NCBI GenBank assembly: GCA_013239625.1
Contig: MU055753.1
Coordinates: 3,830,153-3,894,152, forward strand
Direction: 5' to 3'
Length of the DNA stretch: 64,000 nucleotides
From: Lama guanicoe
Taxonomy: Eukaryota
The notes under the pieces are model-generated. The model searched no databases, was not told where the DNA came from, and worked only from the letters and a program-made list of their open reading frames with translations. Position 1 is the first letter of the stretch, and the number at the start of each line of letters is the position of its first letter. Positions 26,842 to 28,405 of the stretch are shown here, piece after piece. The position numbers were made by a program, and so were the translations under genes.

Positions 26842-26917
26842 GTGGTGAGGTGGGTCGCGTGCAACGCAGCTGCGAGGCCACAGCTCCCAACAGGTCTCGC
26901 GGCACCAGACTACTATG

Positions 26918-28405
26918 ATGCTGATGGCGGCGGCCGCGGAGCGGAACAAGGATCCCATCCTGCGCGTGCTGCGGCAGTATGTGGACTCGGCGCAGCGCGG
27001 CGTTCGCGTACTCGAGGTGGCCTCGGGCTCCGGCCAGCACGCGGCCCACTTCGCGCGGGCCTTCCCCTACGCCGAGTGGCAGCCGTCCGACGTGGACAGC
27101 GCGGCTTGGACAGGTGCAATGGCAGACCGGGCCCCATCCCGCTGCCCCTGGCTCCATAGGCTTTTGTGACCCTTCTAAGCCTCTCCCAAGCCGGGTTGCA
27201 GGGGCTCAGAAATGGCTGCGGAGGCCACCCCCACCCACGGCCTGCCTTTCCACAGCATTGCAGCCACCACTCAGGCCCATGAGCTGCCCAACGTGAAAGC
27301 CCCTCTGTACCTGGACGTGACCTGGGATTGGGAGCAGTGGGGCGGGATCCTGCCGCAATCCCTGGACCTGCTATTCTGCATCAACATGATCCACATCAGC
27401 CCCCTGAGATGCTCTGAGGAAGTGTGGGTGAACTACCCAGGGGCTACCCACCTGCTCCATGCGCATTCCTCCCCCTGCACTGGGAGGGAGTGGGGTGCCA
27501 GGTTTGCCCCGTATCAGAGACGGGGCACTCAGGCCGGGGAAGTCAGGCTGAGCCTCCAGCGCGGGCCCAGGGCTCTTTTAGGGGTCTGAGGAAAGTTCCT
27601 CACTGCTGTCCTGCCTCCCCTCTCCACAGGGGCTTTTCAGAGCATCAGGACACCTGCTCAAACCCAAGGCGCTGCTCATCACCTATGGGGTGAGTGCCCC
27701 TGCCAGAGTGGGGCTTGCCCTGGCAGGACCACCCTAGCCATCCTTGGCTGTTCTTGCCTTTCTGGACTCCCTTATTCTCTCTTTTCCCCAGCTACCTGTC
27801 ATCACTGTAACACACCCAGGCCTGCCTCTCTCCAATACCCTCCTCCATCCCACCCCACCTGCCAGTCTCCCTGCACCCCCTTGGCTCAGTAGCTGGTCCT
27901 CAGCTATCCCGCCTCTGGGGGGCAGGGAGGGGTGTGTCCTTTCCATCCTGTCGGTGCCAGCTTGCAAGTCTGCCCAGTGGATGACAGGATGGCTGACCCT
28001 GGGGCAGTGGGCGGCAGGCAGAGTTGTGTACCCCGTCTCCACAGCCCTATGCCATCAATGGGAAGATTTCTCCTCAGAGTAACGTGGACTTTGACCTGAC
28101 CCTCAGATGCAGGTCAGAGCTGGGTGGGTAGGGGGCTTGGCTTGGGGGGCAGGTGGGCTGAGCGACCCCCAGGCCACGACTCCACCTCCTTCTCTCCTGC
28201 AGAAATCCAGAGTGGGGGCTGCGGGACACAGCCCTTTTGGAAGACCTGGGCCAGGCTAGTGGCCTGCTCCTGGAGAGGATGGTAGGTGGAGAGGACTATG
28301 GTCAGGTGCAGCCTCCCTGGGGACCAGAGGCAGCTTCTCCAGCCAAAGTGTCTCCTATAGGTGGACATGCCAGCCAACAAGTGCCTAATTTTCCGGAAAG
28401 AGTAA
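26918..28405 (+). pseudogene. METTL26: Methyltransferase-like 26 (C16orf13, DUF938), 6 exons, reading frame disrupted in this sequence (pseudogene or assembly error)
   Basis: Exons 26918-27113 (an extra in-frame ATG lies at 26915), 27256-27418, 27630-27689, 28045-28112, 28203-28281 and 28361-28405 match METTL26 ([25 protein letters not shown] motif, [15 protein letters not shown]). Identity is secure. Lesions: 1-nt deletion near 27097, exon 2 donor reads GA instead of GT, and MPANN is shortened to MPAN. Confidence 0.8.

Follow-up and report, generated by a model that had tools for sequence, protein, structure and literature searches.

A probable unitary pseudogene of METTL26 in the South American camelids

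Mammalian METTL26 (C16orf13; Pfam DUF938, PF06080) is a predicted seven-strand SAM-dependent methyltransferase. The orthologues have 204 residues and are strongly conserved, with a mean column identity of 93% among 37 mammals. The function and the substrate of the protein are given as unknown in the accessible text of two sources (PMC8662637, PMC13707005). Among solved structures, a search by sequence finds no relative and returns two chance matches (E ~0.4). A model of the human protein, built on a 37-sequence alignment (pLDDT 86.5, the best of five that range from 56.9 to 86.5), adopts the seven-strand fold and resembles SAM-dependent methyltransferases, with 3mcz as the best match (E 1.4e-10, 19% identity).

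Gene losses restricted to one tribe of the camelids are described for other genes. In the accessible portions of PMC12127551, CES3 and CPA3 are inactivated in Old World camels. The case described here is alike in that the inactivating mutations are found in one camelid tribe and may be corrected as errors by annotation pipelines. As far as those portions go, the study screened only losses in the Old World camels, with the alpaca serving as intact reference; the alpaca annotation was transferred to the other three species, and the authors note that frameshifts may be corrected by RefSeq (PMC12127551). A loss of METTL26 in llamas and alpacas is outside this design, because only Old World losses were screened. 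No report of a camelid METTL26 loss was found in the literature searched, and one supplementary file of PMC7498332 gave no match; subscription papers, bioRxiv supplements and TOGA tables may list it.

The window, a stretch of 64,000 nt from Lama guanicoe, contains a six-exon METTL26 gene on the plus strand at 26915-28405 (Table 1). By tblastn and exon reconstruction, its layout is collinear with the 204-residue orthologues. The exon pieces match the DUF938 profile as the mammalian proteins do, with 56 bits for the part in exon 1 and 52 bits for exon 2 (curated cut-off 27). The second ATG corresponds to residue 1 of the orthologues and the 3' part of exon 1 matches DUF938 positions 18-58. In contrast to the full-length mammalian protein, the window has no canonical form that gives 204 residues.

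METTL26 occupies a syntenic position, with the tRNA-Gly gene on one side and on the other a large exon with Kazal, Ig, Kunitz and NTR domains, which we take from the domain order to be WFIKKN1. In line with the human gene order, this position is presumably ancestral. Minus-strand coding pieces near 20157 and at 35317-36225 are presumably MCRIP2 and RAB40C, which fits the gene order usually found around METTL26. No N gap is closer than the one at 43036. The 11-nt promoter motif resembles a ZNF143-type site. Directly 3' of the tRNA-Gly, an AT-rich insertion (26290-26530) with an internal duplication of ~38 nt gives the impression of a retroelement 3' end. Towards the far end of the window, a tRNA-Ala(AGC) is called between N gaps (60656-60727) and could be a SINE-derived copy.

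Table 1. Features at and around METTL26 in the window (positions in the window; residue numbers as in the 204-residue orthologues)
Feature	Position	Strand	Remark
tRNA-Gly(CCC) gene, upstream neighbour of METTL26	26215..26285	+	ARAGORN
CpG-island promoter region	26650..26914	+	CpG observed/expected 1.04, GC 0.67 over 26650-27150
11-nt promoter motif	26829-26839	+	
Exon 1, coding part; motif I and strand 2	26915..27113	+	second ATG at 26918
Alternative donor inside exon 1	26977..26978	+	
P24S	26987-26989	+	exon 1
Lesion 1, loss of one base in the codon of invariant Q61	27097..27099	+	
C63G (old frame)	27103..27105	+	Cys in 37/37 orthologues and camel
Exon 2	27256..27418	+	DUF938 65-118; L106F 27374-27376, T119S 27413-27415
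Possible cryptic acceptor, exon start 8 nt into exon 2	27264	+	in-frame AG
Premature TGA of the default splice form	27294..27296	+	predicted NMD trigger
Lesion 2, exon-2 boundary lacking GT	27419..27429	+	probable deletion of ~7 nt
Exon 3	27630..27689	+	A126S at 27645-27647
Exon 4	28045..28112	+	open, both splice sites canonical
Exon 5	28203..28281	+	open, both splice sites canonical
Coding portion of exon 6, including the stop; carries lesion 3	28361..28405	+	
AATAAA poly(A) signal	28545..28550	+	
Large intact neighbour exon	29011..30486	-	491 open codons

The first lesion is a frameshift in exon 1. Past the codon of D60 two bases (27098-27099) are left over, and the old frame then resumes. 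Counted from the second ATG the exon has 196 nt (199 nt from the first), which upholds the preliminary description, where 196 instead of 197 nt had been read; the comparison with the orthologous frame gives the same result. That frame continues in 267/267 proteins with the WQP[SL] motif, with DVDQRCLD in 240; the motif is present in 267 of the 302 proteins compared, isoforms included. Default splicing of exon 1 to exon 2 leads to the TGA. This stop, which exon reconstruction confirms where the preliminary description had placed it, is 234 nt from the start, with another 122 nt to the old end of exon 2. The alternative donor at 26977, joined to exon 2, is in frame and bypasses the lesion, dropping 46 codons that include motif I; it matches the junction of the camel isoform X3 models. 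The exon-1 donor (27111-27122) has an A at intron position +5, where 42 of 46 read-through peptides from other mammals imply a G. From the sequence, this A may be a fourth change, one that weakens the donor. A frame of 125 codons (27212-27589) starts at an ATG in intron 1 and extends across exon 2 into intron 2; its match to DUF938 is confined to 62-132, and gene callers could be misled by it.

The second lesion affects the donor of exon 2. Intron 2 begins with GAAGTG at 27419, and the other four METTL26 introns begin with GT. The GA in place of GT had been noticed before and is present in the sequence, and so are the weak in-frame GT sites at +3 (27422) and +9 (27428). In other mammals VCG starts 28 of 31 intron-2 read-through peptides. 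The intron 2 of the window fits these peptides best after three codons, with a mean of 5.1 matches in 14 (maximum 12); five other offsets give means of 1.1-2.1. Because the match begins after three codons, two bases stand for nine, and a deletion of ~7 nt, a size estimated from non-camelid peptides, probably took away the donor. The origin suggested earlier, a GTAAGT that lost one T, is countered by these offsets and by the VCG starts, and the longer deletion fits better.

The third lesion is the loss of one Asn codon at 28376-28378. The last exon of the gene encodes MPANK, where MPANNK had been expected; the expectation holds, with ANNKCL in 177/177 compared proteins that have the DMP motif. 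Alternative-frame forms of the exon have three Gln in 22/22 cases and the window has two.

The camels provide the nearest comparison. Among the matches listed, the closest protein is the METTL26 model of the dromedary (96% over exon 2). The camel sequences are predicted protein models in which exons 1-5 and the Asn pair are intact: P0256 of C. ferus and C. bactrianus (XP_014422280.1, XP_010949180.1) and P0121 of C. dromedarius (XP_064334339.1). Among the members listed, the camels have no 204-residue isoform. They share with the window G75E, the exon layout and the alternative exon-1 donor. Unlike the window, the X1 model P0256 has no frameshift and is intact across the junctions of exons 1-2 and 2-3, the dromedary model is intact at the junction of exons 2-3, and both Asn codons are kept, in a shifted frame. 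P0256 reads exon 6 in this frame because intron 5 is retained, and has three Gln against two in the window. The camelid alignment that had been proposed as a check thus finds camel models with neither frameshift, donor loss nor Asn deletion. Some RefSeq isoforms of camels and whales keep intron 5 (28282-28360); the frame in which the dromedary model reads it is not the one of the Bactrian camel and the window, which implies a small dromedary indel. G75E (27281-27283) occurs in the window and in Camelus and is absent from 37 other mammals; the change is common to the camelids, affects a site that hardly varies otherwise and is older than the lesions.

Between residues 1 and 190 the window differs from the camel by P24S, C63G, L106F, T119S and A126S, in addition to the broken Q61. 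The camel has the majority residue at all five substituted sites, and all five changes are derived in the window. Three changes of the window fall at columns invariant in 37/37 orthologues, whereas the camel breaks none; residue 126 is Ala in all 37 and in the camel. Exons 4 and 5 have no change from the camel. Five derived changes against none give p = 0.0625 in a sign test, not significant alone, and at least three otherwise invariant columns are also broken in 2/37 intact orthologues, on longer branches. A Poisson test of the five changes (P = 0.0002-0.06) is a rough guide only, because branch lengths of 0.008-0.02 and an omega of 0.15-0.25 are assumed. Read-through of intron 5 and the 3' UTR, a crude neutral yardstick, differs from the camel at two residues in ~38 codons; five coding changes are therefore close to the expectation for a largely neutral branch. 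None of 361 proteins compared carries the private residues of the window, which is weak evidence either way, and three ORFs of the window have no exact match.

The lesions were compared with sequencing runs through the shares of sampled words that each run holds. Such shares, with the best holders ranked first, indicate presence and neither genotype nor homozygosity. Ten of the 24 runs listed hold all 178 sampled words, under three organism labels (A, B, C) and five studies (P1-P5). Four more hold 0.97-0.99 of the words (labels A, D), and another four hold none. All ten full holders are flagged as a possible source of the window DNA, as are 13 of the 14 high-share runs altogether, X13 (0.98) being the only one unflagged. 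Most high-share runs must nevertheless be independent, we infer, because one assembly cannot derive from three labels and five studies. If the sampling is random, a given lesion escapes every sampled word with a chance of 0.034. The lesions are thus unlikely to be assembly errors. Six of the 24 rows are RNA or guessed RNA and hold 0.26-0.46 of the words, around the 0.39 expected for exons only. Because camel DNA or RNA could give similar shares, these rows are not taken to show transcription.

Taken together, the lesions, the runs and the camel models support the proposal of the preliminary description that METTL26 is a unitary pseudogene rather than a product of random error. The gene is probably such a pseudogene in the South American camelids. 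The main competitor is a rescue by cryptic splice sites, in which llamas and alpacas would keep a remodelled METTL26 that has given up several residues invariant in mammals. The earlier splice reading had recorded the in-frame GT sites correctly and missed the in-frame acceptor 8 nt into exon 2. Used with the normal exon-1 donor, this acceptor restores the frame, and the protein up to the end of exon 2 then counts 117 residues rather than 120. With a GT at +3 or +9 taking over from the lost donor, a protein of ~201-203 residues would follow. Each route has an open frame and preserves motif I and strand 2. The unchanged exons 4-5 agree with a working protein, the RNA shares near the exon-only expectation are a hint only, and in the accessible part of PMC12127551 the alpaca keeps a RefSeq coding model (XM_015239184.2) that is counted as a 1:1 orthologue. 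That listing does not show an intact gene, because RefSeq may correct frameshifts, as the same part states (PMC12127551). The rescue requires two weak sites together, and the normal acceptor (27256) comes first. Of the nine positions of the donor consensus, the GT sites at +3 and +9 match 5, whereas the four intact donors match 6-7. In the rescued product, the invariant Q61, C63, L64, S66 and I67 of helix 61-73 would be lost or replaced, helix 116-129 would contain 1 or 3 extra residues, and N196 would be absent. No such protein is present among the protein matches or the 24 clusters listed. A rescue is for these reasons doubtful.

The remaining explanations accept or question the lesions in other ways. 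The window copy would be a dead duplicate if an intact METTL26 were located elsewhere in the genome. However, the copy has kept its introns and lies between intact neighbours, the matches and clusters listed include no intact protein of Vicugna or Lama, and the orthogroup in the accessible part of PMC12127551 gives a single alpaca gene, so that a duplicate is very improbable. More specifically, no Vicugna or Lama METTL26 is among the protein matches listed (the best 120 of 238, the best 120 of 166, and 34/34) or among the partly listed clusters, which is weak evidence either way. A broken haplotype that segregates alongside a working allele has an equally small probability. The contigs establish presence and not homozygosity, and a ranked list of the best holders could hide animals with an intact allele; yet a haplotype that combines three indels with five substitutions and occurs under three to four organism labels would have to be an old and widespread allele. 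Sequencing or assembly errors can draw on the fact that all three lesions are deletions, that the assembly has N gaps and that most of the matching runs are flagged as possible sources. Against them, three labels and five studies hold every sampled word and the adjoining exon is clean over its 491 codons, in keeping with the intact neighbours reported in the preliminary description, and errors are an extremely improbable cause.

As a unitary pseudogene, METTL26 is likely a natural knock-out in the llama-alpaca lineage. In the default transcript the frame would shift after residue 60 and reach a stop in exon 2. An early stop of this kind is predicted to trigger nonsense-mediated decay. The transcript would therefore be degraded or would give a peptide of ~80 residues with only the first two of the seven strands. 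No open frame covers the whole seven-strand fold: the stop at 27294 interrupts the default form, and 0/16 exon-skipping forms with the normal exon-1 donor and the old exon ends finish in frame. As far as the exons can be read, no canonical splice form is predicted to encode the 204-residue METTL26. In the human model, the frameshift maps after the second strand and before most of the sheet (strands 102-203), the junction of exons 2-3 is placed inside helix 116-129, and the lost Asn is positioned in the turn between the last two strands. Because the CpG-island promoter is probably still active, a non-coding transcript would be expected.

The Old and New World camelids separated ~16.3 Mya, and the guanaco and the vicuna 2-3 Mya, according to the accessible parts of PMC12127551 and PMC8032396, respectively. 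All three lesions postdate the first split, because the camel models have none of them, and are older than the second if the run labels correspond to South American species. One null mutation was probably fixed in the ancestor of the South American camelids; selection would then have ended, and the remaining changes would have built up neutrally between ~16 and 2-3 million years ago. Five derived residues and three indels common to several organism labels point to a loss that is millions of years old. The preliminary description had considered the loss recent, from the kept promoter motif and AATAAA signal. This dating fails: at an assumed neutral divergence of 1-2%, the 17 motif bases remain unchanged with a probability of 0.71-0.84, which carries little dating information. 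Relaxed selection on a dispensable enzyme is the most likely cause of the loss, and nothing in the data shows adaptation.

The locus is also an annotation trap, since the accessible part of a published camelid comparison carries the alpaca METTL26 as a normal 1:1 orthologue (PMC12127551). The finding has a limited impact: losses in single lineages are common, the same question could be put to a knock-out cell line, and no phenotype is linked to the gene. If the loss in one camelid tribe is true, a mammal can live without METTL26, and camels on one side and llamas and alpacas on the other would form a natural pair in which to seek the missing methyl mark.
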